From NCBI GenBank assembly GCA_977020255.1, contig CDROCS010000772.1, forward strand, positions 806,001-870,000: a stretch of DNA of 64,000 bases. The letters are read 5' to 3'. The position numbers were made by a program, and so were the translations under genes. Of this stretch, positions 1 through 52,835 are shown one piece after another (the stretch's first letter is position 1; every line of letters begins with the position of its first letter). The DNA comes from Obrimoposthia wandeli (lineage: Eukaryota). The notes under the pieces were generated by a model. That model saw only the letters and a program-made list of their open reading frames with translations. It was not told the DNA's origin and ran no database searches.

Positions 1-165
1 GAAATATCAAAACAACGCCAGACAACAAAGACAAAACGACATGACCAGAAACGGATCTATCTGAAACGAATAATAATCAAAACTGTTTGCAAAAGGACAA
101 CCAAGGCCCTGTGCACTGTCGTACAAGGATTGATCTACGGAGTAGTAATTGGATTGGTACTATAA
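1..165 (+). CDS. 3' end of a gene running in from outside the window; C-terminal hydrophobic tail (tail-anchored membrane protein)
   Basis: Frame 1 is open from base 1 to TAA at 163-165: ...TVCKRTTKALCTVVQGLIYGVVIGLVL*. Not in the ORF track because it lacks a start. Confidence 0.4.
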   Translation, partial: EISKQRQTTKTKRHDQKRIYLKRIIIKTVCKRTTKALCTVVQGLIYGVVIGLVL

Positions 166-189
166 GCCATTTCAACGAGTAAAGCTGAA

Positions 190-1503
190 TTGATGACGCT
201 AGCTGAATATAATCTACATTTGAGAAATCTAGACAACACCCTAGAAATAATCAAGACGTCTCACAGTAAAGCCGTGATGATCATGTGTGTGAAAGGATGT
301 CCAGGACGATTATGTATAATACCAGCGACAGAAATGAAAACACTAAATGGATATTATGGAGTTAGTGTTGTCACATGTGAAGGATACACATTTGGACAAA
401 CTAAACTAGTACTTCTCAGTGACATGTCCAAACAAAGCACACATAAATTTAAAATATTAACCATCAAAAGTAAAGAGATACAAGCAATACGTTATGGTAT
501 TCTAGAATTGGTTAATCCAATCCTGGCATTGATTATCGGAATCATAATATTAATATTGCTCATCTTGTTTAGTTGTACAAAGATCGAGCTGAAATCGAAA
601 AAGAAACGTCACGATCTTACAAGACGAACAGGTCAAATGAATTTACAAAATTTCGACACAACTATACTAAGACCAGCATTTATAAATGAACCAGAACCGG
701 AGTATCAGCCAACAATATATGAACATATCGAGGAAAGACCGTACTTCATGAGTAATTTGAGTTATCCCAGAGAAGTTCCTGAGATTCGGAACCGAACGAT
801 AATAGGAATCATGCTGATCATACAAATCACCACGACCGAGGCTGGTTACGAGATCATGATCAGTAAATGGAGACAAGATACGATACGTGCGTTATACATA
901 GAAATACCTCTACTAAAAATGAATCACATAGTAGACATTCAACTACAAATATCTGCAACCGAAAATGTCGATCAGAAATTGTATGTCATCCGCCAGATTG
1001 AAATAAATATTGACAAACATACACTTTACTACCGACTGATACTATTCTATTATGAAAAGGTATTATACCTACGAATAACAATATCAAAAAAGAAACGGAT
1101 TATCAAAATTATCCGAACAAAGTCAGTAATATTGTCTAACGACGAGCGCATCTGGAAAGTTATTGACATAATTATGGTCACAGGTAAACGACGTAAAACT
1201 GTATGGAATTCCGTTAATTTATTTATCAGATTGTTAGAAACTGACCAGGTAACAGTGGCGTGTCCCAATCCATATGACGGAATCAAATTCGCAATACAAC
1301 CCCAACTGTTAGTACCACATTATGATGCAGAATGTATATGTAACCGAATTTCCAGTAATGCTAAAGAAACCTCTACCGTAATCATAGTAATAACAGGTGA
1401 AATATTCTATATAACTCTAAGATACCAGACACGTCGATTTCGTGGACTGGGTATGAGGATCAGACCCAAGAAACTCCATTCCAAGAGACTAAAACAATCA
1501 TAA
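190..1503 (+). CDS. 437-aa hypothetical membrane protein in the accessory region of the LTR element
   Basis: Long open frame in AT-rich DNA; clear TM segment PILALIIGIIILILLILFSC followed by a basic stop-transfer stretch KIELKSKKKR. First ATG at 193. No family recognised. Confidence 0.6.
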   Translation: MMTLAEYNLHLRNLDNTLEIIKTSHSKAVMIMCVKGCPGRLCIIPATEMKTLNGYYGVSVVTCEGYTFGQTKLVLLSDMSKQSTHKFKILTIKSKEIQAIRYGILELVNPILALIIGIIILILLILFSCTKIELKSKKKRHDLTRRTGQMNLQNFDTTILRPAFINEPEPEYQPTIYEHIEERPYFMSNLSYPREVPEIRNRTIIGIMLIIQITTTEAGYEIMISKWRQDTIRALYIEIPLLKMNHIVDIQLQISATENVDQKLYVIRQIEINIDKHTLYYRLILFYYEKVLYLRITISKKKRIIKIIRTKSVILSNDERIWKVIDIIMVTGKRRKTVWNSVNLFIRLLETDQVTVACPNPYDGIKFAIQPQLLVPHYDAECICNRISSNAKETSTVIIVITGEIFYITLRYQTRRFRGLGMRIRPKKLHSKRLKQS

Positions 1504-2013
1504 AGAAGGCAAAGGTGAAAGGAAGAAAACGCCATTCCGAGAAACCAAACACCACAATAAAAAAGGCAATGGTGAAAAGAAAGAGCTCAATCCCCGAAAC
1601 CAAAGCACAATTATCGAGAGGACAAGAGTGAAAGGAATGATTCCACTGGATCTCAAATCTCGAATAATAATACCCTTTAGACAAAAACAAAATATCCGAA
1701 TCCGTGATTTAATAGAAAATCGGACATAATACACGGAAACCAAACAGCATCATTTGAGACGCCATTCAAACCAACAAACAACAAAATAAAATATGATTAC
1801 CAATCCTCAGACAGCGGGATAACTGCAGTCAATGCTTTAATTGTAATGGCCGTAGTGTCAACTGCAGTAGTTCTATTGACAATCGTGTGCGTGAAAGACA
1901 GACAGATATGCCCAAGAATACGACGAAGATGCAAAGAGCTACGATGCTGTAATACACCCATGGTGGAGGAAGTGGAATTGCGACCCTTACCTCCGCCTCC
2001 CATCAAGACATGA
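1503..2013 (+). pseudogene. Degenerate type-I membrane protein with TM segment and proline-rich tail
   Basis: Open from 1708 to TGA at 2011-2013: ...GITAVNALIVMAVVSTAVVLLTIVCVKDRQICPRIRRRCKELRCC...LRPLPPPPIKT*. In-frame TGA at 1705 corresponds to CGA in the inverted copy (ORF 28703-28948 and upstream). Confidence 0.5.
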
Positions 2014-2140
2014 CAAGTCAGAGGAAGTTGTAGATAAATTAGTGTGTAAAAATATGTAGAGATATGTAGAAGCGATTGTACAAACAAGTGTAGAATTATG
2101 TAAAATTCATGTAGAAATTAATTGTCATCATGTATTTAGA

Positions 2141-2440
2141 ATGACTGAGGAATGCCGAATATGTTTGAAAAATATAACCGAACGAAGAACAAGACCCAAT
2201 ACCTGCAACCATCTACACCACGAGGAATATTTATCAAAATGGATCACAACTTATGGAGAGTTCCCCCATCCAACATACCCTCGTTGCCCTGTATGCAGAA
2301 GACAATTCATAAAGTTCATCATAATAGAAACCAACCAAGAGGATGTAGATGTACAGGTGGAATTTTGTTGGAAAGATTTGAGAGAGTGTTGTTGTTTTTT
2401 CTGTATATCAGAACGACAAGATTCGACCACATTTGTGTAA
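2141..2440 (+). CDS. RING-H2 protein 1 (sixth ligand Cys changed to Tyr in this copy)
   Basis: CRIC-x13-CNH-LH-H-EE-Y...CPVC; the inverted copy reads HEECL. C-terminal Cys-rich motif FCWKDLRECCCFFC. Confidence 0.8.
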   Translation: MTEECRICLKNITERRTRPNTCNHLHHEEYLSKWITTYGEFPHPTYPRCPVCRRQFIKFIIIETNQEDVDVQVEFCWKDLRECCCFFCISERQDSTTFV

Positions 2441-2500
2441 ACATCACACAACAACCAACCCTCAATCGAGCCCAAATTCAACATCACCTCTCTCACAGCA

Positions 2501-2806
2501 ATGTCTGGAGAATGTTCCATCTGCTACGAGAACATCGATGACCTCTACACCAAATCCAACAACTGCGAACACAAATTCCATGTCCAATGCCTCGAGACAT
2601 GGATCCCAGTTGTCAACAGCAACAAGCCCCTCGACTACCCAACCTGCCCAATGTGCAGGGCATCCTTCTCGGTACACTTCGTATACAACCGAGACTGTCT
2701 TCAAGCAGTGGTACCCATCGTGTACTGTTGGAAGGACATCTGCGACTGCTGGTGCATGTTCAGCGTGGAGGAGCGACACACAGGCCAGCCCGACAGCCAA
2801 CAATAA
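2501..2806 (+). CDS. RING-H2 protein 2 (putative E3 ligase, all eight ligands intact)
   Basis: CSIC-x13-CEH-KF-H-VQ-C-LETW...CPMC; C-terminal YCWKDICDCWCMF. Confidence 0.9.
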   Translation: MSGECSICYENIDDLYTKSNNCEHKFHVQCLETWIPVVNSNKPLDYPTCPMCRASFSVHFVYNRDCLQAVVPIVYCWKDICDCWCMFSVEERHTGQPDSQQ

Positions 2807-3123
2807 TCGAAGGTAACTTTTTGACATAAACGTGACATCATGAACTAACCCTGTGTATCGCATACCGCGGTAAAATAGCTACCATAATTGTAATCATAAT
2901 TGTATAATCTTGTGAAACTGTAAAATGACCTTTACCATTTTTGTGTATGATGTTTATTTGAAATTGTAATTATTATACTGAAAATCCTAAAAGACACTTT
3001 TTATACTTAGAATGCGAAAAACATACCCAAAGAAAAGACAAAATTCGGTAGGTTAAAATATTAAGGTTTAAAATCATATAAACTTCAAATAAAAAGTGAT
3101 TTAACCGATACACCATTGTGCAG

Positions 3124-3654
3124 ATGATATGCTCGGTGTGCCTCAACAAAGTTCGGGACTCCTCGGCAATCCCTGCCGGGTGCTGTCACCGATTCCACGA
3201 AGCGTGCCACTATATGTGGGCCAAAGCTCGACCCGACGGCAACATCACATGCCCGATGTGCCGAGCACCTTTCACCGAGTGGACAATCCATTGCCGTGGA
3301 CGCTCAAAGGGCACCCGCTCACCTACCAGCTGTATTGGTGGCGAGTGGTGCCGATGCCCCATCTGCCCTATGCGCCGTCGCGACGCGCAGCGCAATATAC
3401 GAGAGGTGTGGCGGTCTAGCCGTGACCACCACTCGTGGCAGTACGCTCGGCGAGTGTGGCTCAGCAACCATGAGCAGCACAGTTCCGGCGCCCCCCTAAT
3501 CCGCCAAAGCCCGCATCTGAATATTTTCCAGCAGCTGGGGCTTTACCAGGGCGACACTCCAGTGTTCCCAACGTTGCCCCTGGAGTGGGTGATGCTATTC
3601 CTCGAGGAGTGGAATAGGCCAGTGCCCACCATCGACTTAACAATGGATGGCTGA
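3124..3654 (+). CDS. RING-H2 protein 3 with C-terminal extension
   Basis: CSVC-x13-CCH-RF-H-EA-C-HYMW...CPMC; ATG at 3124 (the track starts at GTG 3118); extra CRCPIC motif downstream. Confidence 0.85.
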   Translation: MICSVCLNKVRDSSAIPAGCCHRFHEACHYMWAKARPDGNITCPMCRAPFTEWTIHCRGRSKGTRSPTSCIGGEWCRCPICPMRRRDAQRNIREVWRSSRDHHSWQYARRVWLSNHEQHSSGAPLIRQSPHLNIFQQLGLYQGDTPVFPTLPLEWVMLFLEEWNRPVPTIDLTMDG

Positions 3655-3902
3655 TGGAACACTGACACTTACCCTTTCCTTCTCCTTTACCTTCTCTTAA
3701 CCTTCTCATTCTTAAAACATTCATTTTTGTAAAAATACATGTTTATTGAATATTCGTTGACCATGTCCGAATTATTCAAATAAGACCGAAAAATACCGAT
3801 TCTTGTCAACCAGTGGGTATGTTGAAGAGTAATTGAATGTTTGAAATTAAGTCGGGATGTTTTTTCTAAAATCTGGGACTAGTAAATAAAAATCGATACG
3901 TT

Positions 3903-3936
3903 CCGAGGACGTAACATTTTTGGAACCTCCGAGATA
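3903..3936 (+). promoter_or_regulatory. 3' internal terminus of an LTR element (degenerate PPT region)
   Basis: CCGAGGACGTAACATTTTTGGAACCTCCGAGATA directly precedes TGTTAGG. A CGAGGACG...T-run...PPT layout is typical just upstream of Gypsy 3' LTRs; the purine tract here is poor. Confidence 0.4.
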
Positions 3937-4372
3937 TGTTAGGATTAGGTTTTGAGTAATTTTAAATAATTAATTGATTTTATACTAAAATAAAAATCCT
4001 TGAAAGCAAGGTTATATTTAAAATAAAACTCATATTAAAATTAAATTGTTAAAATTAAGACGGGAATTAAATAATAGGACTACGAAGGTCATGTGTAAAC
4101 GTGTGCTGTATTTAAGGGATTTTAAACTTAACCTAAAGGCCCCAAAACGAAGTTAGCAAAGTATTGAAGAATTGATTAGAGGAAGAAGAAGGAAAATTAA
4201 AGAAAAGAAGAATATCGCAACAATCACAGCTGCCCCTGTCTGCTCTGTCTAAAAGTAAGAGCACTTATACTAAGTGCAAATTGATACAGTTTTTTTTAGG
4301 TATTGGACACAACCCACCTAACTAGTATATACTCACAACTACACTGTAATGATTCGAGATGAACCATACAGT

Positions 4373-5100
4373 TGTTGAGGATTCTAATTGAAACTCTTCT
4401 ATTAGATCCTCGTATGGAGGCCCCATCGTTAGTTCTGTAGCGATAGGGCTTACAGATGAATGTGGCCTACCTGTTCTTTTCTTACTTAATTCTAGTCTCA
4501 AATCTGAAGGTTTTATGTCTTATTGTCTTGTGGTGTGTTGTGTTCACAGAATAGCTAGTAGGACCCCAAAACTAGTGTGATGTGATATACGTTAGGTGGA
4601 TTTCTTATCAGCTGAGTTAGTTTTTAATGTTGGAAGGGTCTCGCAACACCGAGACCGAATATCAATGAAACAGAGCCGGGACCAATCGACGTAGACAATA
4701 CCCCTCTGAATCTGTCAGCACGTGAAATATTTTCTCGTGGGTTGTCCTTCGGCTAATCATATGTTAGAGGCACACGAATTTCACAAGGGAGTTAACTCGG
4801 AATGAATCTTCTATCGATTTCGCTAGAATAACTATAGTTAACTAAGTGCACTTAGAACTTCCCAAAATTACTACAGAAATACACAATATAGTTGGCACTT
4901 TTCTATGCGTATATTTTCATACGGCTCCTGCTATAATCACCCTTCAAATTATTCCCCGTGCCTTACTACTCGTCTAACTAACTATTTACTATTGTATACT
5001 ATCTCTACACTTATACAATATTATGGTAATTTCACTTTTACAATTATACTTTTACAATCAACGTAAATCAATTCTCTACTAGTTTAAGGTTTTACTCAAG
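4373..5100 (-). mobile_element. Inverted LTR fragment (3' end) of the same LTR family
   Basis: Reverse complement ends ...GGGGCCTCCATACGAGGATCTAATAGAAGAGTTTCAATTAGAATCCTCAACA and aligns by eye with 7992-8505. The inner boundary is approximate. Confidence 0.65.
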
Positions 5101-6303
5101 AATTATTTACTCCAATACACTTTTCAATTTAAAATGTAATTTTACTCAATAGCTTTTCAATTCAAAATGTTATTTTAGTCAATTCTAAATTATATGATTA
5201 TTTGTTATTACTAATATATATATAGTAACAACAAATAATCATGTAATTTAATAGAAAAACAAATTTTGATACCTTATTTGAGTAAATAATTGTTTATTGA
5301 ACAAATTATCTGAGAGAAACAGTGAAGTTATTTGGTTGAGGTTAGGAAACTAAAATAAAACTAAATAAATAAGTTAATTATAGGAAAAATTAACCTTAAA
5401 TAATGAAAGTTAAGAAAATAAATAAAATAATTTTTTGTATGAAAGCTTGAATTTAGAAATAAATAAAATATCAAGTAAGGTTAAAATATAGGTTAGAATA
5501 TGTGTATATAAGTTGAATAAATTGTGTAGAAAGGCCGAGAAAAAGATTAATAATTGCAAAATAGAATTGCAAGAGAAAAGAAAAGATAATAACATGGTAA
5601 AAATTGTTAAAGATAATTGTGTGAAATTAAGTGGCGGTTTCATTAGTCGTGAAGAGGAAATCTATTATTCGACATTGCAACGAGACATGGAAGTGCACTT
5701 AGGAGAATCAGTTAGTGCACTCAGGAATTATTAGCGACCGTGAAATCATCCAGGTGAGTTTTAGTATATAAAGAAAATGTATTATAACAAATTTCAGAAA
5801 ATTGATTGGCTTCAAGGAATTAATTTGCAATTTACGTGCATCGAATCGAGCTAATAAATCTGAGTCAAGAATCGATCTGAATTAATCTTGTAATATCCTA
5901 AATCGAATTAAAGAATAATAATTTAGTCGGATGTTAACCTTGTCAGAACATAATTGAATTTGAAATTAATATTTTAGCCAAGAAACCGACTAACCAGGAG
6001 AAAACAATAGGCTAAACTGCGTGAGAGACCCTCACCACATTAAGGATCGAATTGGAACTGGTGAGACCTCAATCCGAAATTAAAAGACAACATTTAGTGT
6101 CTTAAGATCGTAAACAATCCGGAATTTGAAGATAGTATTTTAATCGGAAATTAGTCTTGTACGATTGTGAGTTTTATTATAATATTATAGAAGTGTACGA
6201 AGCTAGTGGTATTATAATATACAAATTAGTTAGATAGACGAGTATTAAGGGACGGAAAATCTAGAAGAGTGAGCATAGCCAGAGACGTATAAAAGTATAA
6301 TCG

Positions 6304-7987
6304 TGTTAGGATTAAGTTTTGAGTAATTTTAAATAGTTAATTGATTTTATACTAAAATAAAAATTCTTGAAAGCAAAGTTATATTTACAATAAAACTCAT
6401 ATTAAAATTAAATTGTTAAAATTAAGACGGGAATTAAATATTAGGACCACGAAGGTCATGTGTAAACGTGTGCTGTATTTAAGGGATTTTAAACTTAACC
6501 AAAAGGCCCCAAAAAGAAGTTAGCAAAGTATTGAGAATTGATTAGAGGAAGAAGAAGGAAAATTAAAGAAAAGAAGAATATCGCAATAATCACAGCTGCC
6601 TGTCTGCTCTTACTAGAAGTAAGAGCACTTATACTAAGGGAAATTACACACATAAATTTATATATATAAATTGAGCGACCAGAAGTTGAGAGCCAGAAAA
6701 TCAGAATATAAGACTCGTGGATAAAATTCGAGCATTCACAAAAAACCCAATACAGATGTACAGCAGCGGTGAATCTCTTGACAATTGAAATCAGATCGAG
6801 GCAGTTCATCACACAAGGCGTCTCAAAAAAAAAGAAATCAGATCGAGGCTATCTGATAATCAATTGGATCGGATAAGGACGACACGAGGCAGTTCTTCAC
6901 ACAAGGCGTCTCTGCGGAATCGGAGCAAGGATATCCAGCGGTCAACCGGATCGAGACTGTCCAACAATCTCTGCGAAGGACGGTAAGAGCAGAGTGCGAT
7001 GTGTCGTTAAAATTGTTGATATTATTGATATTTAACTGCTCGAAAAAGTTGACATTCTAAAAGAATAGTCCTGTTTCTATAGAACTCACGTTGGGGCCCT
7101 CCATTCAGAGGATCTATATTAGAAACAGTTTCATATAGAAACCCCTGAAGAAAAATTAAATGAGTTATTGGTAAAATTTGATATCCTCATTGCTCATAAA
7201 ATTTGATATTAAAATTGTTTGTATAATTGATATTTTAACTGCTTGAAAAAGTTGACATTTCGAAAGAATAGTCTGAAGAAAATTAAGGGAATTATTTGTA
7301 AAAATTTGATATTCTCATTGGTCATAAAAATTGATATTCTAATTGTTTGTATAATTGACATTTTAAATGCTCGTAGAAGTTGACATTTAAAAAAAAAGGG
7401 TGAAGAAAATTTAAAAATTAAGGTATTCCCTTTTTAATTCGATATTCGATCAAAGTTATAAGAGCTGATCCCAGTTTAAAAGAAGAGTAACAAATTAAGT
7501 TATCTCAGTACATTTTCTATATTCTATCAATCTAAATTACTCCTAATTTTAGAGCAACAATCCCTCTAAACCTATTCCCTATTTTAGAGCAACCAGCTCT
7601 CCAAAATCCTATTACTTTAACCTTGTCACATTTTAGAGTAAAGTCTCTAGTAACCAACCAACCCTAAAATAAAATCGATAGATGGTTCATCTCCACTTGT
7701 GTAGAGACTTGGTGAAAGTCTTAGGAATAGTATTGTCATTATTAGAACATAATTAGAACGTGTTTAGCTTAGTGTGTTTAGTAATAAAAGATTTCCTACA
7801 ACTAGACAGCGTTGTTATAGATCCTTCCAATTTAAAAATAACAAACCTTCAGATAAGAATTGAGACAGGCAAGCATAACCTTAAGTAGGCCACAAACATC
7901 TACAAGTCCTGCTTCTATAGAACTCACGTTGGGGCCCTCCATTCAGAGGATCTATATTAGAAACAGTTTCATATAGAAACTCCAACA
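6304..7987 (+). mobile_element. Solo LTR (1,684 bp) inserted into another LTR
   Basis: TGTTAGG...CTCCAACA termini; 4-bp target site duplication ATCG at 6300-6303 and 7988-7991. Confidence 0.85.
7015..7420 (+). repeat. Three diverged copies of a ~128-bp unit inside the solo LTR
   Basis: Recurring TTGATATTT(T)AACTGCT.GAAAAAGTTGACATT core at about 7025, 7228 and 7357. Confidence 0.65.
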
Positions 7988-21336: not shown

Positions 21337-24300
21337 GTAATCATATGGATATCAAACTAACTAAATGGTTATTATTTAAATGGAAATAATTTGATTGGTA
21401 CTAAAGATTTTACCCTATTATTTTTTTGTGATTTTTAAAATTTATAATCTTATAATTGTTTAACTAATTTATTTAATTCTCTTCAAATATTAATATTTAA
21501 ATTTTAAAAGTTATCATCAAATTAAATATTTGCGAAATTGTCAGCTGTAAATAAAGAATTAATTCAAGCATATTTGTTAAACGATTATGATGTTATTTTT
21601 TAAAATTAAAAATGGATTTTTAAAAATAACTTTACAAACTGTATCCTAAGGCTTTATATGGTTTTAATGGTATTAATTAATAATGTTTACGGGCTCCTAT
21701 ATTTTAAATAATTCATTGTATTCCTGATTATTATATTTCACATGAGAAAAAAGAAAACTGTAATTAATATCTAAAATTGGCACAATTTTTTTTTTATATA
21801 TATATATATGGTTATTACATGAAATTTATCTTTATTAAAACAAAAAGATTGATCGCCTGATTTTGAATTTATAAAAAATTAAAATGTTAAGTTGGTATAT
21901 TCGCATTACTTTTAATTGTAAATAAGCTAAAGTTTTGATATTTAAGTGAATAAAGTGATATTTAAATCCTTATTTATTAAAACTGTATTTAAAAGGGATA
22001 TTTAAATCCTTATTTATTAAAACTGTATTTCGCATTTTTAATATCTTGAATATGGAAAGTAGCCTCAGTGAAATGTGTATAGCAATGCCTTTGTAGAGTG
22101 GTTTTTTTACCTGTTCCATTTCCATTTAAAAAACTGAAATAACTTTGTCCCTTTTGAGACCCCGCATTGTTAGATTAGTATGATTCATTTTCATTTGTTT
22201 CAACATGTCACTTTTTATATCGTTGAATTTCTTCGTTTTTTAGCGTACCAATGACTTTGTTACTAAACATGTTTTTTTTTGTAAAATAACCTAAAAATAT
22301 CTTTAATTTAATCTAAATTTCTCTATAAATACATTTTGGCTATATTTCTGTTTGTATTTTTATATTTTTCCATTGCCTTCTTTTACCTTTAAAACAGTGG
22401 ATACTGGTTTTGAATATTTTATGATTTTTAATAATATGACTTTCTTTTATTGTGTTGTTGATTTTTGTTTACCCAATTCTAGGACAAACATTCGGGATAA
22501 ATAAAATATATTGATAGGTAAATTTAGTTGTCTTATACCTTGAATCCTCAAAATTCAACGGTAAAATAATTTCTGGGCATATTTCTGCGATTGAAATTTT
22601 AAAAAATCTTTAAGAAAAATTTATCCTAAATATCATTTAAAACCTTCCATACATTTAAAAACTTTGCTAAGGACCTCGGGTTCATCTAGTTTCTAGAGAA
22701 AACCGCTTTTCGTCATTCAATATTCTACATTGCTATATACTTGGATCCTTGATTAGTAGATCAGGGGGAATTGAAATTCGTTTACTTTTGTGCATTTTTA
22801 GATTCTTTTGGAGTTTCAAATATGTTGAGGTTTCTAATAAAGAACCTCTGAATGGAGGCCTCCAACGTGAGTTCTATAGAAGCAGGACTTGTAGATGTTT
22901 GTGGCCTACTTAAGGTTATGCTTGCCTGTCTCAATTCTTATCTGAAGGTTTGTTATTTTTAAATTGGAAGGATCTATAACAACGCTGTCTAGTTGTAGGA
23001 AATCTTTTATTACTAAACACACTAAGCTAAACACGTTCTAATTATGTTCTAATAATGACAATACTATTCCTAAGACTTTCACCAAGTCTCTACACAAGTG
23101 GAGATGAACCATCTATCGATTTTATTTTAGGGTTGGTTGGTTACTAGAGACTTTACTCTAAAATGTGACAAGGTTAAAGTAATAGGATTTTGGAGAGCTG
23201 GTTGCTCTAAAATAGGGAATAGGTTTAGAGGGATTGTTGCTCTAAAATTAGGAGTAATTTAGATTGATAGAATATAGAAAATGTACTGAGATAACTTAAT
23301 TTGTTACTCTTCTTTTAAACTGGGATCAGCTCTTATAACTTTGATCGAATATCGAATTAAAAAGGGAATACCTTAATTTTTAAATTTTCTTCACCCTTTT
23401 TTTTTAAATGTCAACTTCTACGAGCATTTAAAATGTCAATTATACAAACAATTAGAATATCAATTTTTATGACCAATGAGAATATCAAATTTTTACAAAT
23501 AATTCCCTTAATTTTCTTCAGACTATTCTTTCGAAATGTCAACTTTTTCAAGCAGTTAAAATATCAATTATACAAACAATTTTAATATCAAATTTTATGA
23601 GCAATGAGGATATCAAATTTTACCAATAACTCATTTAATTTTTCTTCAGGGGTTTCTATATGAAACTGTTTCTAATATAGATCCTCTGAATGGAGGGCCC
23701 CAACGTGAGTTCTATAGAAACAGGACTATTCTTTTAGAATGTCAACTTTTTCGAGCAGTTAAATATCAATAATATCAACAATTTTAACGACACATCGCAC
23801 TCTGCTCTTACCGTCCTTCGCAGAGATTGTTGGACAGTCTCGATCCGGTTGACCGCTGGATATCCTTGCTCCGATTCCGCAGAGACGCCTTGTGTGAAGA
23901 ACTGCCTCGTGTCGTCCTTATCCGATCCAATTGATTATCAGATAGCCTCGATCTGATTTCTTTTTTTTTGAGACGCCTTGTGTGATGAACTGCCTCGATC
24001 TGATTTCAATTGTCAAGAGATTCACCGCTGCTGTACTTCTGTATTGGGTTTTTTGTGAATGCTCGAATTTTATCCACGAGTCTTATATTCTGATTTTCTG
24101 GCTCTCAACTTCTGGTCGCTCAATTTATATATATAAATTTATGTGTGTAATTTCCCTTAGTATAAGTGCTCTTACTTCTAGTAAGAGCAGACAGGGGCAG
24201 CTGTGATTATTGCGATATTCTTCTTTTCTTTAATTTTCCTTCTTCTTCCTCTAATCAATTCTCAATACTTTGCTAACTTCTTTTTGGGGCCTTTTGGTTA

Positions 24301-27144
24301 AGTTTAAAATCCCTTAAATACAGCACACGTTTACACATGACCTTCGTGGTCCTAATATTTAATTCCCGTCTTAATTTTAACAATTTAATTTTAATATGAG
24401 TTTTATTGTAAATATAACTTTGCTTTCAAGAATTTTTATTTTAGTATAAAATCAATTAATTATTTAAAATTACTCAAAACTTAATCCTAACACGATTATA
24501 CTTTTATACGTCTCTGGCTATGCTCACTCTTCTAGATTTTCCGTCCCTTAATACTCGTCTATCTAACTAATTTGTATATTATAATACCACTAGCTTCGTA
24601 CACTTCTATAATATTATAATAAAACTCACAATCGTACAAGACTAATTTCCGATTAAAATACTATCTTCAAATTCCGGATTGTTTACGATCTTAAGACACT
24701 AAATGTTGTCTTTTAATTTCGGATTGAGGTCTCACCAGTTCCAATTCGATCCTTAATGTGGTGAGGGTCTCTCACGCAGTTTAGCCTAATGTTTTCTCCT
24801 GGTTAGTCGGTTTCTTGGCTAAAATATTAATTTCAAATTAAATTATGTTCTGACAAGGTTAACATCCGACTAAATTATTATTCTTTAATTCGATTTAGGA
24901 TATTACAAGATTAATTCAGATCGATTCTTGACTCAGATTTATAGGCTCGATTCGATGCACGTAAATTGCAAATTAATTCCTTGAAGCCAATCAATTTTCT
25001 GAAATTTGTTATAATACATTTTCTTTATATACTAAAACTCACCTGGATGATTTCACGGTCGCTAATAATTCCTGAGTGCACTAACTGATTCTCCTAAGTG
25101 CACTTCCATGTCTCGTTGCAATGTCGAATAATAGATTTCCTCTTCACGACTAATGAAACCGCCACTTAATTTCACACAATTATCTTTAACAATTTTTACC
25201 ATGTTATTATCTTTTCTTTTCTCTTGCAATTCTATTTTGCAATTATTAATCTTTTTCTCGGCCTTTCTACACAATTTATTCAACTTATATACACATATTC
25301 TAACCTATATTTTAACCTTACTTAATATTTTATTTATTTCTAAATTCAAGCTTTCATACAAAAAATTATTTTATTTATTTTCTTAACTTTCATTATTTTA
25401 AGGTTAATTTTTCCTATAATTAACTTATTTATTTAGTTTTATTTTAGTTTCCTAACCTCAACCAAATAAATTCACTGTTTCTCTCAGATAATTTGTTCAA
25501 TAAACAATTATTTACTCAAATAAGGTATCAAAATTTGTTTTTCTATTAAATTACATGATTATTTGTTGTTACTATATATATATTAGTAATAACAAATAAT
25601 CATATAATTTAGAATTGACTAAAATAACATTTTGAATTGAAAAGCTATTGAGTAAAATTACATTTTAAATTGAAAAGTGTATTGGAGTAAATAATTCTTG
25701 AGTAAAACCTTAAACTAGTAGAGAATTGATTTACGTTGATTGTAAAAGTATAATTGTAAAAGTGAAATTACCATAATATTGTATAAGTGTAGAGATAGTA
25801 TACAATAGTAAATAGTTAGTTAGACGAGTAGTAAGGCACGGGGAATAATTTGAAGGGTGATTATAGCAGGAGCCGTATGAAAATATACGCATAGAAAAGT
25901 GCCAACTATATTGTGTATTTCTGTAGTAATTTTGGGAAGTTCTAAGTGCACTTAGTTAACTATAGTTATTCTAGCGAAATCGATAGAAGATTCATTCCGA
26001 GTTAACTCCCTTGTGAAATTCGTGTGCCTCTAACATATGATTAGCCGAAGGACAACCCACGAGAAAATATTTCACGTGCTGACAGATTCAGAGGGGTATT
26101 GTCTACGTCGATTGGTCCCGGCTCTGTTTCATTGATATTCGGTCTCGGTGTTGCGAGACCCTTCCAACATTAAAAACTAACTCAGCTGATAAGAAATCCA
26201 CCTAACGTATATCACATCACACTAGTTTTGGGGTCCTACTAGCTATTCTGTGAACACAACACACCACAAGACAATAAGACATAAAACCTTCAGATTTGAG
26301 ACTAGAATTAAGTAAGAAAAGAACAGGTAGGCCACATTCATCTGTAAGCCCTATCGCTACAGAACTAACGATGGGGCCTCCATACGAGGATCTAATAGAA
26401 GAGTTTCAATTAGAATCCTCAACAACTGTATGGTTCATCTCGAATCATTACAGTGTAGTTGTGAGTATATACTAGTTAGGTGGGTTGTGTCCAATACCTA
26501 TAAAAAAACTGTATCAATTTGCACTTAGTATAAGTGCTCTTACTTTTAGACAGAGCAGACAGGGGCAGCTGTGATTGTTGCGATATTCTTCTTTTCTTTA
26601 ATTTTCCTTCTTCTTCCTCTAATCAATTCTTCAATACTTTGCTAACTTCGTTTTGGGGCCTTTAGGTTAAGTTTAAAATCCCTTAAATACAGCACACGTT
26701 TACACATGACCTTCGTAGTCCTATTATTTAATTCCCGTCTTAATTTTAACAATTTAATTTTAATATGAGTTTTATTTTAAATATAACCTTGCTTTCAAGG
26801 ATTTTTATTTTAGTATAAAATCAATTAATTATTTAAAATTACTCAAAACCTAATCCTAACATATCTTGGAGGTTCCAAAAATGTTACGTCCTCGGAACGT
26901 ATCGATTTTTATTTACTAGTCCCAGATTTTAGAAAAAACATCCCCACTTAATTTCAAACATTCAATTACTCTTCAACATACCCACTGGTTGACAAGAATC
27001 GGTATTTTTCGGTCTTATTTGAATAATTCGGACATGGTCAACGAATATTCAATTAACATGTATTTTTACAAAAATGAATGTTTTAAGAATGAGAAGGTTA
27101 AGAGAAGGAAAAGAAGAAGGAAAGGGTAAAGTGTCAGTGTTCCA

Positions 27145-27675
27145 TCAGTCATCCATTGTTAAGTCGATGGTGGGCACTGGCCTATTCCGCTCCTCGAGGA
27201 ATAGCATCACCTGCTCCAGGGGCAACGTTGGGAACACTGGAGTGTCGCCCTGGTAAAGCCCCAGCTGCTGGAAAATATTCAGATGCGGGCTTTGGCGGAT
27301 TAGAGAGGCGCCGGAACTGTGCTGCTCATGGTTGCTGAGCCACACTCGCCGAGCGTACTGCCACGAGTGGTGGTCACGGCTAGACCGCCACACCTCTCGT
27401 ATATTGCGCTGCGCGTCGCGACGGCGCACAGGGCAGATGGGGCATCGGCACCACTCGCCACAAATACAGCTGGTAGGTGAGCGGGTGCCCTTTGAGCGTC
27501 CACGGCATTGGATTGTCCACTCGGTGAAAGGTGCTCGGCACATCGGGCATGTGATGTTGCCGGCGGGTCGAGCTTTGGCCCACATATAGAGGCACGCTTC
27601 GTGGAATCGGTGAAGGCACCCGGCAGGGATTGCCGAGGAGTCCCGAACTTTGTTGAGGCCCTCCAAGCATATCAT
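27145..27675 (-). pseudogene. Inverted copy of RING-H2 protein 3, second Cys lost
   Basis: ICLEGL instead of ICSVCL; otherwise an open frame. Confidence 0.75.
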
Positions 27676-27993
27676 CTGCACAATGGTGTATCGGTTAAAT
27701 CACTTTTTTATTTGAAGTTTATATGATTTTAAACCTTAATATTTTAACCTACCAAATTTTGTCTTTTCTTAGGGTATGTTTTTCGCATTCTAAGTATAAA
27801 AATTGTCTTTTGGGATTTTCAGTATAATAATTACAATTTCAATTAAACATCATACATAAAAATGATAAAGGTCATTTTACAGTTTCACAAGATTATACAA
27901 TTATGATTACAATTATGGTAGCTATTTTACCGTGGTATGCGATACACAGGGTTAGTTCATGATGTCACGTTTATGTCAAAAAGTTACCTTCGA

Positions 27994-28299
27994 TTATTGT
28001 AGGCTATCGAGCTGGCCTGTGCGTCGCTCATCCACGCAGAACATGCATCAGCAGTCGCAGATGTCCTTCCAGCAGTGCACGATGGGTACCACTGTTTGAA
28101 GTCAGTCTCGGTTGTATACGAAGTGTACCGAGAAGGATGCCCTGCACATCGGGCAGGTTGGGTAGTCGAGGGGCTTGTTGCTGTTGACAACTGGGATCCA
28201 TGTCTCGAGACATTGGACATGGAATTTGTGTTCGCAGTTGTTGGGTTTGGTGTAGAGGTCCACGATGTTCTCGTAGCAGATGAAACATTCTCCAGACAT
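27994..28299 (-). pseudogene. Inverted copy of RING-H2 protein 2 with premature stop after the RING
   Basis: NRD* (TGT to TGA) removes the Cys-rich tail. Confidence 0.8.
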
Positions 28300-28359
28300 T
28301 GCTGTGAGAGGGGTGATGTTGAATTTGGGCTCGATTGAGGGTTGGTTGTTGTGTGATGT

Positions 28360-28586
28360 TTACACAAAGTGGTCGGATCTTGTAGTTCTGATGTACAGAA
28401 AAAACACCAACACTCTCTCAAATTTTTCCAACAAAATTCCACCTGTACATCTACATCCTCTTGGTTGGTTTCTATTATGACGAACTTTGTGAATTGTCTT
28501 CTGCATACAGGGCAACGAGGGTATGTTGGATGGGGGAACTCTCCATAAGTTGTGATCCATTTTGATAAACATTCCTCGTGGTACAT
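28360..28586 (-). pseudogene. Inverted copy of RING-H2 protein 1, N-terminus deleted
   Basis: Starts at HEECLSKW; the segment matching left-arm 2130-2215 is missing. Confidence 0.8.
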
Positions 28587-29133
28587 AATGACAATTAATT
28601 TCTACATGAATTTTACATAATTCTACACTTGTTTGTACAATCGCTTCTACATATCTCTACATATTTTTACACACTTATTTATCTACAACCTCCTCTGACT
28701 TGTCATGTGTTGATGGGAGGCGGAGGTAATGGTCGCAATTCCACTTCCTCCATCATGGTTGTATTATAGCATCGTAGTTCTTTGCATCTTCGTCGTATTC
28801 TTGGGCATACCTGACTGCCTTTCACGCACACGACTGTCAAAAGAACTTCGGCCATTACAATTAAAGCATTGACTGCAGTTATCCCGCTGTCTGAGGATTG
28901 ATAATCGTATTTTATTTTGATGTTTGTTGGTTTAGATGGCGTTTCCATTGGTGCTGTTCGGTTTCCGTGTATTATGTCTGATTTTCTAATAAATCGCGGA
29001 TTTGGATATTTTGTTTTTTATCTAATTAATCGAGATTTGAGATCCTGTGGAATCGTTCCCTTCACTCTTATCCTCTCGATAATTGTGCTTTGGTTACTGG
29101 AATCGAGCTCATTTCCTTTCACCTCTGCCTTTT

Positions 29134-30159
29134 TTATGACTGCTTTTGGTTTCTCGGAATTGAATTTTTGGGTCTGATGCTCATACCTAGTCCACGAAAT
29201 CGACGTGTCTGGTATCTTAGAGTTACATAGAATATTTCACCTGTTATTACTATGATTACGGTAGAGGTCTCTTTAGCATTACTGGAAATTCGGTTACATA
29301 TACATTCTGCATCATAATGTGGTACTAACAGTTGGGGTTGTATTGCGAATTTGATTCCGTCATATGGATTGGGACACGCCACTGTTACCTGGTCAGTTTC
29401 TAACAATCTGATAAATAAATTAACGGAATTCCATACAGTTTTACGTCGTTAATGACCATAATTATGTCAATAACTTTCCAGATGCGCTCGTCGTTAGGCA
29501 ATATTACTGACTTTGTTCGGATAATTTGGATAATCCGTTTCTTTTTTGATATTGTTATTCGTAGGTATAATACCTTTTCATAATAGAATAGTATCAGTCG
29601 GTAGTAAAGTGTATGTTTGTCAATTGTATGATCAGTATGATTCCTATTATCGTTCGGTTCCGAATCTCAGGAACTTCTCTGGGATACCTCAAGTTACTCA
29701 TGAAGTACGGTCTTTCCTCGATATGTTCATATATCGTTGGCTGATACTCTGTTTCTAGTTCATTTATAAATGCTGGTCTTAGTATAGTTGTGTCGAATTT
29801 TTGTAAATTCATTTGACCTGTTCGTCTTGCGAGATCGTGACGTTTCTTTTTCGATTTCAGCTCGATCTTTGTACAACAAAACAAGATGAGCAATATTAAT
29901 ATTATGATTCCGATAATCAATACATGTCACTGAGAAGTACTATTTTAGTTTATCCAAATGTGTATCCTTCACATGTGACAACACTAACTCCATAATATCC
30001 ATTTAGTGTTTTCATTTCTGTCGCTGGTATTATACATAATCGTTATGGACATCCTTTCACACAAATGATCATCACGGCTTTACTGTGAGACGTCTTGATT
30101 ATTTCTAGGGTGTTGTCTAGATTTCTCAAATGTAGATTATATTCAGCTAGCGTCATCAA
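29134..30159 (-). pseudogene. Inverted, internally deleted copy of the 437-aa membrane ORF
   Basis: Track ORFs 29594-29920 and 29134-29406 match parts of ORF 190-1503; deletions break the frame. Confidence 0.8.
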
Positions 30160-30384
30160 TTCAGCTTTACTCGTTGGAATGGCTTGTACAATGGTTTCTG
30201 TCTTTGACTTGAGATTTCTGATTCCAGCTTTATTCTCTCTTTACAAACCTGGTTGATTAATATGTTTTTCGTCGAAACGCCATTAGTTGCACGAACATCC
30301 AATGAAAAATGAGAAACGTATCAATTGAAAGTGTTGGTTGAATATGCTTAAAGTGAACTAAATCAATACATCCATTTTCATCTC

Positions 30385-40966: not shown

Positions 40967-42150
40967 TTAACAATTAGGTACAATTTTAATTGCAACATAT
41001 TCTCTCCTTGATTGAACCTTAATCAACAATACAATAAGGAGCATGTCACAAAATATTACTACTTGAACAGAGAAAACAAATCCACATAGAACAACAACAC
41101 CAAAAAGAAAACCCTCTCTCTCTAATACTCGACATAAATTTCTTATAGACTTCGTCTTCTCTTTCCCCTGCTCCATCAATCTGACTACCCGTACCAATCC
41201 ATCTTGTCCCTCCATCAATTTCAGTATTCTCGCTAGAGGCCATTTTCTTTGCTCATTTTTCTTTTCCAATACCAGTACAAAATCATCTACTTTCAATGGT
41301 TCCCGCGTTTCCCACCATTTTTGTCTAACTGCTTACATTGGCAATATCTCATCCATCCACCTTTTCCATAATTGTTCCATCAAACCTTGTAACAACTTCC
41401 ACCGATGTTTCACATTATTCGTGGTCAAGTCGCAATTCACCGTACCTCCAGGTATCAATAAACTATTGGGCGTCAATGAAATAATTTCTTTATTATCTTG
41501 ACTCACATAACTTCATTCCACGATCTCGCTATAATTTGTGCTAGATTGATCCCTTCACATGCATCCATTAATTCCAATTTCGGAATACTCACTGTTTTCA
41601 ACGGTGTTACTTTCGATTTCGCTGTTATTAACACAATTTTTACTTTCCTTTTTTTCCTTATCCTTAGATAACGGACCCACGAATCCTAAAGGATCAAATA
41701 CTGTGGACAAAATACTTAAGAATTCTCGCTTACTAATATTGATCCCATAATTTACTTTAGTTTTAAAAATGAAATAATCTTCTTGAGGATCCCATTGAAT
41801 ACCTAATGTCTTGACTTGACGTTCTTCATCTTTGATTCGTAATACCTTTGCTTGGTCCGATAATGGAATCTGCTTCTTAATTTCCTCACTACTCGTTATC
41901 CATTTTTTGGCTTCCATTTTCGCTCCTCGCCATATTTCTTTCACTTCTAACATTCACTAGATCCTCTGTATCTACTGAGCACAAAGTATCATCCATATAA
42001 GTATTCTCCAAGATTAATCTCGCACTATCTGTATACTTCTCTTGATATCTTCCTGCGTTTCCCTTGATACCATCTGTGCCAAAAATGGCAATGCAATTAA
42101 CCCGAACACTATCCGTTCGTATTCATAGGTCACTATAGTAGGTGGATGTG
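40967..42150 (-). pseudogene. BEL/Pao LTR retrotransposon remnant (RT, peptidase A17/RNase H-like region, integrase C-terminus)
   Basis: TYEYERIVFG and YMDD (RT); KTLGIQWDP and SILSTVFDPLG (Pao-type); LWKRWMDE...VDDFVLVLE...WPLARI...DGLVRVV (DUF5641-like). Internally deleted. Confidence 0.9.
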
Positions 42151-50111: not shown

Positions 50112-50834
50112 TTACACATGATAACGATTAAAAATACGTATTTGATGAAGCATAGCTTCATTAGGAGCAGCAATAGTCCGTTTAGCTTTAACAAGATTCG
50201 AAGCAGCAGTAACACCAATCGAATGAGATAAAAATGCAATAACAATGCAAGCAGCATGTAAACTACCATAATGACCACATACTAAAATCTTACCACCATT
50301 TTCGATAGTTTCTTTAATTATATTATTAGTCTGTTTATAATACTTCATTATTGTTTCTCCTAATTTTGAGTTTACAAAGACAGAAGTATATTTTAATTTC
50401 TTATAAGATATTTTATCCAGTATAGATGTATTGATTACATGAGTGAAATTGGAATTCAAAAGATTAGTTTCATCAAACCCATCTCTATAATTACCAATAT
50501 ATAATTGATTTACTAAAATCTCACTCATCGCGGTTTTGTTTAACTTTTCTACATTAAGTTGAGTAAATCTAGCACTAAACAAACTATCAAAAAGATGGGT
50601 CATGTGGTTCATTTCCATACTCGAAGCATGAGCTATTATGGGTTCCATAAAAGCCAAAGCATTTAAAAAATCTATCCGTCTCTTATCTTCAATAATTGGA
50701 TCTATAATAATTTCTTCTTCTATCGTCACTTCATCAATAGTTTCTTCTCTTCTTATAACTGTTGTTGTTGTTGCTGGTGGTGATGATGTTACTGATGATG
50801 ATGTTGCTTCTGGTGCTGAATCGATTTTCTCCAT
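50112..50834 (-). CDS. Dual-specificity phosphatase-fold protein, predicted inactive
   Basis: SEIL..QLYIGN, FTHVIN and GGKILV...GS...A.IVIAFL; the HCX5R loop reads CGHYGSLH. Confidence 0.85.
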   Translation of the reverse strand: MEKIDSAPEATSSSVTSSPPATTTTVIRREETIDEVTIEEEIIIDPIIEDKRRIDFLNALAFMEPIIAHASSMEMNHMTHLFDSLFSARFTQLNVEKLNKTAMSEILVNQLYIGNYRDGFDETNLLNSNFTHVINTSILDKISYKKLKYTSVFVNSKLGETIMKYYKQTNNIIKETIENGGKILVCGHYGSLHAACIVIAFLSHSIGVTAASNLVKAKRTIAAPNEAMLHQIRIFNRYHV

Positions 50835-50867
50835 TTTATCAATTCCGAGTCAATTTAGTCTTATATA

Positions 50868-51834: not shown

Positions 51835-52835
51835 TTAATTGCCTATGCTATGAAATCTAATATTTCTTACTCGTCTAATGATAATTGTCTTGCAATATGG
51901 ACATGTAATAAAACGATCTGAACATTTAATACACGTGTTTAAGTGACCGCATGGTAAAAATGCCACGGAAATCGCATCACTCATGCAAACAACACATTCG
52001 GGATTTGGTAAGAGGTACTCGAGATAATTTATCCGATGTTTTGGTTCAGATTTTATTTCTAAAGACCTTAAATCCGTTATAAACTCATATATAGAATCAT
52101 ATTTATTACCGAATGTTTTAAACCTATTAACTAAAACGGCTTTGATTCTATCATGGCTGTAATCACGTTTCAGCAAAACTATTTGACGAGTTTCCATCTG
52201 GGCATCAATTTCATCATTACTAATATGATATTCAACAATACATCCGTTCTTGATTCCCATACTAGATGCTTTACAATCTCGAGTATGAAAGATTCTTTCG
52301 GGCATAGTATCAATAAGGTCAAGTCGGGGTACTGCTTTCCGACAGAAACAACATCGATAAGAATCATTCCAAATATATACATGATCGAAAATCGATAATG
52401 TAGGTATTTCAATATCATTAGAATAATTATTGCGCACAATAACTACTTTATCCATTGGAGTTGTATCAAAATCAATTTGGGTGGTGCTGGAATCAATTAT
52501 TGGTACGTTTGAAACATTCATTTTCAAAACAAACGGGCATCTTGGGAAAAATAGCTGATGTTGCTTCATTGGTTTCAGATAGTACTCCCATCCTGATATT
52601 CCTCCTGACAGTAAATACACTTTACATTATCTTTCGAATCATCGTGCTTGTAAAATCCTGCTTTTGCTAAAGCTTTCTTATGGGCTAAACCAGTAAACTT
52701 TGCTTGTAACGATTCTAATCTTCTTTCTTCATATATCATATTTTCATTTATTCTTGAAATATTATCAAAACGCCGTCGTCTAATGGTGAGTTCTCCGTTT
52801 TCTGAAACATAATGTGCAATAAATTTAGTAGTCAT
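51835..52835 (-). CDS. Inhibitor-of-apoptosis protein (BIR, degenerate BIR, RING-HC) split by one frameshift
   Basis: EERRLES...LAKAGFY...DNVKCIYC / GGISGWE...H...FPRCPFV; second CCFC...H...C; C-terminal CVVC...FLPCGH..TC..C....CPYC. Confidence 0.9.

Follow-up and report, generated by a model that had tools for sequence, protein, structure and literature searches.

Burro (GYPSM1), a giant Gypsy element of planarians, exceeds 30 kb in length and has a first open reading frame (ORF1) of 4,873–5,140 aa, with env placed in frame between gag and pol; in the sections of its description consulted, BIR, Bcl-2-like, ubiquitin/SUMO-like, MATH and ankyrin domains are listed and a role in apoptosis and ubiquitination is proposed (PMC6431247). 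Errantiviruses of the order GAG-ENV-POL, with an ENV of the herpes simplex virus (HSV)/gB type, have been reported from Platyhelminthes, Nematoda and Bryozoa, as stated in the consulted parts of PMC13524379. Here, a stretch of 64,000 nucleotides from Obrimoposthia wandeli was analysed (GenBank assembly GCA_977020255.1, contig CDROCS010000772.1, positions 806,001 to 870,000 of the forward strand), which is referred to below as the window and supplies the coordinates. Profile scans and mapping of the long terminal repeats (LTRs) identified its positions 1–7987 as the 3′ end of an env-bearing Ty3/Gypsy element of 23–27 kb, apparently of Burro-like design. Between its coding part and its 3′ LTR lie three small RING-H2 genes, RING1, RING2 and RING3, and, judging from the pattern of codon conservation, RING2 and RING3 are very probably functional genes of the element.

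In agreement with an earlier sequence-only reading, the three ORFs (2141–2440, 2501–2806 and 3124–3654) are co-oriented and intronless, and all of them score above the Pfam zf-RING_2 cut-off. Their products are predicted RING-H2 E3 ligases. The Trp, Pro and Arg residues that constitute the usual E2-binding face of RING domains are invariant in the three RING cores. RING1 of the window lacks the sixth zinc ligand; the full C3H2C3 set of eight ligands is present for each of the three RINGs in five out of five elements of a younger subfamily, B, whose 40 scored copies are 98–99% identical to one another and ∼81% identical to the window copy. In each of these five elements the polyprotein frame is broken at least twice, yet all three RING ORFs are whole. 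The Cys-rich tail noticed previously in RING1 and RING2 was confirmed and is found in RING3 too, the spacing C-x5/6-C-x-C-x2-C being common to all three. Because this spacing is fixed in the three paralogues, metal binding fits, and a second zinc-binding site is a likelier role for the tail than palmitoyl anchoring. Hydropathy analysis detected no transmembrane (TM) segment in RING1, RING2 or RING3.

The core of RING2 was modelled with a pLDDT of 72–92. The fold neighbours of this protein are RING E3 ligases, the best among the viral ones being iridovirus RING proteins, ICP0 and PE38, and its language-model neighbours are small viral RING proteins; such fold matches are generic and confined to the RING core. 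A shared-word search returned no homologs of RING3 or RING2, phmmer found no match to RING2 in the PDB, and none of the best 150 of 1,070 profile matches combines a RING with the four-Cys tail, all matches being limited to the core. Metagenome contigs yielded four weak RING loci and no relative with the tail. An intron-bearing host orthologue was not found either, in a search saturated with copies of the element (150/150 scored full-span, 86–100%). The GC content at third codon positions (GC3) is ∼0.70 in RING2 and RING3 versus 0.29–0.36 for the element, which may be a sign of capture.

The RING cassette is part of the element. That the RINGs are carried by a giant Gypsy LTR element had been deduced earlier from the LTR boundary; gag-env-pol and a 5′ LTR were now located just left of the window, and the linkage is genome-wide. 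Exact motifs of the RING1 and RING2 tails occur together 12,110 times, compared with 5,654 matches for the reverse transcriptase (RT), 5,584 for the DSP phosphatase and 0 for reversed-pattern controls, which corresponds to about 5,600–6,000 copies and a RING:RT:phosphatase ratio near 1:1:1. Non-autonomous RING-only elements as the main form were rejected on the basis of this ratio. Copies extending beyond the cassette are common: 30 of the 39 other copies fetched by their cassette enter pol-frame sequence within the fetched stretch, and 36 of the 39 enter the LTR. In a position-ordered listing of exact motifs, the first 100 tail matches represent 57 cassettes, in 44 of which an RT or DSP motif lies no more than 10 kb upstream in the same orientation, for the most part ∼7.8–8.2 or 3.8–4.1 kb away, versus one in the control for the wrong side or strand; conversely, a RING motif follows downstream of 39/48 RT matches. 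Junctions of the LTR-then-cassette type in copies L038, L049 and L052 would fit nested insertions.

Selection was estimated by a codon model, the window copy being compared with one copy of subfamily B. The resulting ω (dN/dS) is 0.14 for RING2 (p 1e-7), 0.17 for RING3 (p 2e-13) and 1.03 for RING1 (p 0.94), and the same pair gives 0.05 for RT, 0.13 for integrase, 0.13 for env, 0.12 for DSP and 0.18–0.55 for the membrane tail of the polyprotein. Medians over 14 other pairs, which have one partner in common and are not independent, amount to 0.19 for RING2, 0.23 for the 5′ part of RING3 and 0.68 for RING1 (range 0.47–0.92). An ω-type ratio calculated from changes common to at least three copies is 0.17–0.30 for RING2 and RING3 and 0.46–0.51 for RING1, with 0.65–0.98 for private changes and 1.1–1.8 in off-frames. 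Hence the dN/dS check suggested by the sequence-only reading came out in favour of two genes out of three: RING2 and RING3 are clearly under purifying selection, and RING1 weakly so, its values (0.5–1.0) being ambiguous. At 58% identity and a synonymous divergence (dS) of ∼2, RING3 still has its frame, length and ligands intact. Since RING1 has retained its length and the full ligand set at 71% identity, it is probably functional as well.

Each RING start codon is preceded by a candidate splice acceptor (Table 1). A YAG lies 0–2 nt before all three RING ATGs versus 9/85 and 10/134 of the region's ATGs, and the acceptors, starts and stops are common to both subfamilies. The conserved position of these YAGs points to spliced or trans-spliced messages; extra 3′ ORFs of rotifer LTR elements are typically expressed from spliced messages, according to the consulted part of PMC5408684. 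Among the joints and loose ends listed for contigs of unrecorded kind in four runs from one sample, none fell at these acceptors. Both subfamilies have donor-like sites, located in the LTRs and next to the primer site; such short motifs are common by chance. Read-through of the RING1 stop into RING2 was dismissed as the usual mode, since 41/43 copies have this stop.

Left of the window, the same element comprises a 5′ LTR, gag, a Monjiviricetes-type fusion glycoprotein, a protease-like domain and a BIR with a RING of the IAP type (inhibitor of apoptosis), followed, still outside the window, by protease (PR), RT, RNase H (RH), integrase (IN), a DSP with its catalytic motif and a pseudophosphatase. 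The Ty3/Gypsy order PR-RT-RH-IN is present, and the env, IAP, Bcl-2-like and phosphatase domains all lie outside the window. The fusion glycoprotein (PF24664, E 1.6e-94) is situated between gag and pol, within a natural frame that also holds the Gag knuckle, RT and RH; a single CCHC knuckle was detected in the element. The BIR (PF00653, E 5e-12) precedes the IAP-type RING. Between gag and env there are two weak matches under the cut-off, in the order expected from Burro, a ubiquitin-like one (E 0.0035), with which many ubiquitin-fold PDB matches agree, and a Bcl-2-like one (E 0.038), for which the PDB search gave none. MATH and ankyrin had no Pfam match in any element frame scanned, ankyrins occurring in the database relative P0004; the spacer between PR and RT has a size fitting a dUTPase-like domain, yet no Pfam match. 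Two overlapping natural frames from two copies, one of 3,323 codons (gag to RNase H) and another of 3,306 codons (IAP region to the stop equivalent to 2011–2013), imply a single Gag-Env-Pol-cargo polyprotein of ∼5,480 codons, no fetched copy being open end to end. Its order is Gag, ubiquitin-like, Bcl-2-like, fusion glycoprotein, IAP, PR-RT-RH-IN, phosphatase, pseudophosphatase and membrane cargo. The elements of subfamily B measure 23.3–23.8 kb (three of the five fetched elements, with both LTRs visible), and the window copy ∼27 kb once its insertion is subtracted.

In our opinion, the RINGs are probably element-encoded E3 ligases, made from spliced RNAs and belonging to an anti-apoptosis/anti-defence kit. 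The RING genes would be translated from spliced subgenomic RNAs, an upstream donor being joined to the acceptor before each ATG. The RING core would then recruit a host E2, the four-Cys tail would bind a second zinc and a substrate, and the ligases would act, together with the element's IAP, Bcl-2-like, ubiquitin-like and phosphatase domains, by ubiquitinating host factors capable of silencing the element or killing the cell, so that the host cell is kept alive and permissive. This suggests that the element disarms host defences, as large viruses do. Several observations weigh against such a scheme. RING1 and RING2 are paralogues, so that the acceptors cannot be counted as three independent events; decay has affected most of the older copies, the numbers that are whole and have eight ligands over all copies found being 22/46 for RING1, 24/49 for RING2 and 15/48 for RING3; the tail of RING2 is poorly modelled (pLDDT ∼48–60); RING1 has an ω near unity in the window pair, with a low dS; and, since spacers read in an arbitrary frame, a softer control, gave 0.49–0.71 for shared changes, the shared-change test is soft when taken alone.

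The targets may also be sought in the element's own cycle: the RINGs could ubiquitinate Gag, Env or membrane cargo in the course of trafficking or budding, or act as non-catalytic zinc scaffolds. The element does possess the PF24664 glycoprotein and several membrane cargo units, and the selection data do not discriminate among targets; however, its other cargo (IAP, Bcl-2-like, active-site DSP) is of the host-manipulating type and the nearest folds are those of viral E3s, generic as RING matches are, and action on the own cycle therefore seems unlikely. Even less can be said for palmitoylated Cys tails that would tether the ligases to membranes and down-regulate surface proteins, as had been proposed from the sequence. 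The tails of RING1 and RING2 are indeed rich in Cys and aromatics and the element encodes membrane cargo, but the fixed Cys spacing fits metal binding, no RING has a TM segment, and the Cys run beside the last TM helix of the polyprotein would be a better palmitoylation candidate; the proposal is accordingly regarded as improbable. That the RING ORFs are captured passengers without present function is highly improbable. The GC3 of RING2 and RING3 makes them look acquired, ω of RING1 is near 1 in one pair and many copies are broken, but the persistence of RING3 at a dS of ∼2, the low ω of RING2 and the start, stop and acceptor sites common to both subfamilies are hardly compatible with it, and for RING2 and RING3 this explanation is largely refuted.

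Trans-splicing, internal promoters or leaky scanning may give access to the RING ORFs in place of cis-splicing from the LTR or leader, a possibility that has to be taken seriously even if it is not the one preferred. An acceptor adjoining the ATG is typical of spliced-leader addition. Furthermore, the spacers are more conserved than synonymous sites, and the RING3 ATG is preceded at a distance of 36 nt by an AATAAA (position 3088), to which a similar signal corresponds in subfamily B. The donor-like sites mentioned above, frequent by chance as they are, favour cis-splicing instead.

Table 1. Features of the element in the window. Coordinates are window positions.
Feature	Position	Strand	Remarks
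C-terminal end of the polyprotein, ∼670 codons	1..2013	+	private stop near 163, frame breaks near 1490–1690; ω 0.18–0.55 vs subfamily B
Signal-peptide-like hydrophobic segment ahead of ectodomain 1	106..180	+	hydropathy 2.25; putative signal role
TM helix closing the first type-I membrane cargo unit	520..576	+	hydropathy 3.41; modelled helix, pLDDT 87–92 in those blocks
Second signal-like segment (799–843) and beta-rich ectodomain 2	799..1488	+	no family match; fold low-confidence; ω 0.55, p 0.011
Last TM helix, Cys-rich juxtamembrane tail, polyproline end	1837..2013	+	hydropathy; polyprotein stop 2011
Candidate splice acceptor TAG, 1 nt before RING1 ATG	2136..2140	+	kept in 42/42 other copies and subfamily B
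RING1: RING-H2 and four-Cys tail, 99 aa	2141..2440	+	Pfam zf-RING_2 E 2.6e-6; one zinc ligand lost in window copy
Overlapping 225-codon frame (−1) across RING1 and RING2	2152..2829	+	open in both subfamilies; interrupted at 2539 in window copy
Candidate splice acceptor CAG, 2 nt before RING2 ATG	2496..2500	+	YAG kept in 43/43 other copies
RING2: RING-H2 and four-Cys tail, 101 aa	2501..2806	+	Pfam zf-RING_2 E 7.3e-9; ω 0.14, p 1e-7
Candidate splice acceptor CAG, abutting RING3 ATG	3121..3123	+	kept in 41/43 other copies; kept in B despite differing upstream spacer
RING3: RING-H2, four-Cys motif, 125-aa tail without known family, 176 aa	3124..3654	+	Pfam zf-RING_2 E 2.2e-6; ω 0.17, p 2e-13
46-nt block at the place of the polypurine tract, conserved between subfamilies	3891..3936	+	not purine-rich; may fold into short hairpins
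3′ LTR, TG...CA	3937..7987	+	4,051 bp, internal duplication in window copy; ∼2 kb in subfamily B
Second copy of cassette and LTR, 5′-truncated, internally deleted	22810..30188	−	LTR 99.4% identical to 3937–7985

As compared with the 225 codons of the −1 frame that overlaps RING1 and RING2, no such open run in the polyprotein frames elsewhere is longer than 89. The chance of a stop-free overlapping frame is 0.002 for the RING1 part and 0.08 for the RING2 part; read in this frame, the sequence has an ω above 1 and no Pfam match. The low dS of RING1 may be due to the constraint of this overlap or to a recent exchange between the subfamilies.

Upstream of the RINGs, the sequence-only reading had described three TM-containing ORFs. 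The hydrophobic segments are there (106–162, 520–576 and 1837–1893, by hydropathy), but not in separate ORFs: they belong to the tail of the polyprotein, because the stop at 163 is private (found in 1/31 other copies) and the natural 3,306-codon frame runs to the stop equivalent to 2011–2013. The first stop in common is at 2011 (41/42 copies), and the breaks at ∼1490–1690 are relative to most copies. The tail repeats a pattern of signal-like segment, ectodomain and TM helix, of which the signal-like segment at 799–843 was spotted by eye, under the hydropathy threshold, and the ectodomain model is of low confidence (mean pLDDT 40), matches of this domain in the Atlas (0.90 or less) serving as no more than leads. 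Most likely, the cargo at the polyprotein end would be cut by signal peptidase into type-I membrane proteins. Nine metagenome pol proteins group with the element (support 100/100), and pol-fused membrane cargo marks a wider clade, because a TM helix forms the end of eight of the 11 closest matches examined (P0001–P0009, P0011, P0014), in most cases preceded by a signal-like segment and an ectodomain. Viral contigs gave no match for relative P0004.

The LTR start proposed earlier at 3937 is correct, with TG at 3937 and the CA end at 7987. By contrast, the polypurine tract (PPT)-like site reported in front of it was not confirmed: neither the window copy nor one young copy has a purine run of at least 8 in the 300 nt before the LTR (2/2 copies). 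The 46-nt block stands instead of a PPT also in an element inserted very recently (LTR pair 99.95%). In two young B elements the LTR pairs are 99.95% and 99.7% identical and flanked by 4-bp target duplications. The primer site matches genomic tRNA-Met(CAT) genes; a tandem array of such genes (G000:C2252:200-11858, period ∼284 bp, 38 pattern matches) is the likely source of the primer tRNA. In one element (G000:C144:326604-350178) the LTRs are 99.95% identical and the polyprotein frame is broken several times, which may reflect defective copies moved in trans or indel errors in the assembly. Between the window and B copies, divergence is far higher in RING3, the 3′ spacer and the LTR (dS ∼2) than in pol (dS 0.2–0.3), and a third RING3 type occurs in copies L038 and L052; because of these two observations, modular exchange of the 3′ end of the element is suggested.

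The 5′ LTR of the window element is split by an insertion of 18.6 kb (G000:C772:769319-787976), which has terminal inverted repeats and seems to be flanked by a 6-bp duplication. In front of this LTR, the 3′ untranslated stretch (window 3763–3936) is found a second time, at G000:C772:768014-768187, because of which the 5′ end is considered rearranged and the target duplication of this copy unreadable. Compared with the window 3′ LTR, the LTR of the second copy (22810–30188) is 99.4% identical, the own 5′ LTR of the element being 93.5–98.7% identical in pieces and the internal part of the second copy 94–97%; local duplication or conversion may explain this closeness. Polinton-like ORFs also interrupt a copy of the element in C2730, and a similar end trails the 3′ LTR in C1384.

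Window positions 42000–64000 contain Polinton/Maverick-like integrase, A32-type ATPase, TBP-like, pseudo-DSP and IAP-type RING ORFs, partly as rearranged inverted copies. Among these Polinton genes (window 51835–52626 and 50112–50849; L020), the IAP aligns with the BIR-RING of the element over 290–345 aa at 31–34% identity (E 1e-36), and the DSP-like ORF matches at 32% (E 1e-18 to 1e-20). Exchange, or common ancestry via host genes, may account for this likeness. The assembly is mixed: it includes bacterial and other animal DNA, with numerous COX1 genes of bacterial type that are free of stops and a second COX1 of animal type that follows another code. The multi-copy mitochondrial COX1 reads by code 9 (flatworm/echinoderm), with AAA codons where Asn is conserved and ATA where Ile is, and its divergent sequence would suggest a flatworm.

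A far-reaching interpretation, and a rather doubtful one, would give this retroelement the gene repertoire of a large DNA virus: enveloped and possibly infectious, it would block both apoptosis and defence, at several levels (through Bcl-2-like and IAP domains, a phosphatase with its decoy, surface proteins, three RING-plus-Cys4 E3 ligases of a new type on spliced RNAs, and an overprinted gene). It would also prime its second strand without a PPT and would have exchanged genes for IAP and phosphatase with the Polintons inserting into it. The family occupies up to about a tenth of the 1.35-Gb assembly (5,654 × 23.5 kb), an upper figure, as many copies are deleted and haplotype duplicates were counted as found, and the RING cargo may help to account for its spread to such a share. 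Three small stand-alone putative ligases, together with the selection evidence, thousands of copies and two subfamilies, make the Burro-type idea of apoptosis and ubiquitination directly testable; if it is true, the RING substrates would name host anti-retroelement factors in a little-studied animal group.

In the literature searched, no description of RING-H2 ORFs in LTR elements, nor of RING-H2 cargo on a Burro-like element, was found, bearing in mind that Burro's own 3′ ORFs may already include RINGs; the consulted parts of PMC8532177, PMC11410931 and PMC13238120 contain nothing on cargo. As in rotifer LTR elements, extra 3′ ORFs form separate units; RING, ubiquitin and phosphatase do not occur in the consulted text on those elements (PMC5408684). 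With gB-type errantiviruses it shares a Gypsy pol, the gag-env-pol order, a chuvirus/Monjiviricetes-type fusion protein, LTRs and a primer site, but the nine flatworm entries listed there are 12–18 kb long and without a tRNA-Met primer, and the main text, as far as consulted, is without RING, phosphatase, accessory or Burro (PMC13524379). Like the small RING E3s of large DNA viruses (iridovirus RING, herpesvirus ICP0, baculovirus PE38/IE2, poxvirus p28), the RINGs are short or have an N-terminal RING with a beta extension; unlike them, they have the four-Cys tail, which is absent from the best 150 profile matches; the matches are limited to the RING core and do not imply descent from a virus. 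Burro differs in exceeding 30 kb, as opposed to 23–27 kb, and in its MATH and ankyrin domains, of which no match was found here, and one CCHC knuckle was found in the present element; the consulted Burro text names no DSP with pseudo-DSP, C-terminal membrane cargo or three stand-alone RING-H2 genes (PMC6431247). Since size and MATH/ankyrin fail to agree, and the comparison was made by description, the element is called Burro-like and not a member. The likeness to Burro seen by the sequence-only reading nevertheless holds for the layout: as far as the Burro text consulted allows comparison, both have one polyprotein of ∼5,000 aa in which env stands in frame between gag and pol, as well as a BIR, long LTRs, thousands of copies and accessory ORFs; the ubiquitin-like and Bcl-2-like domains that precede env in Burro correspond here to the two weak matches under the cut-off.

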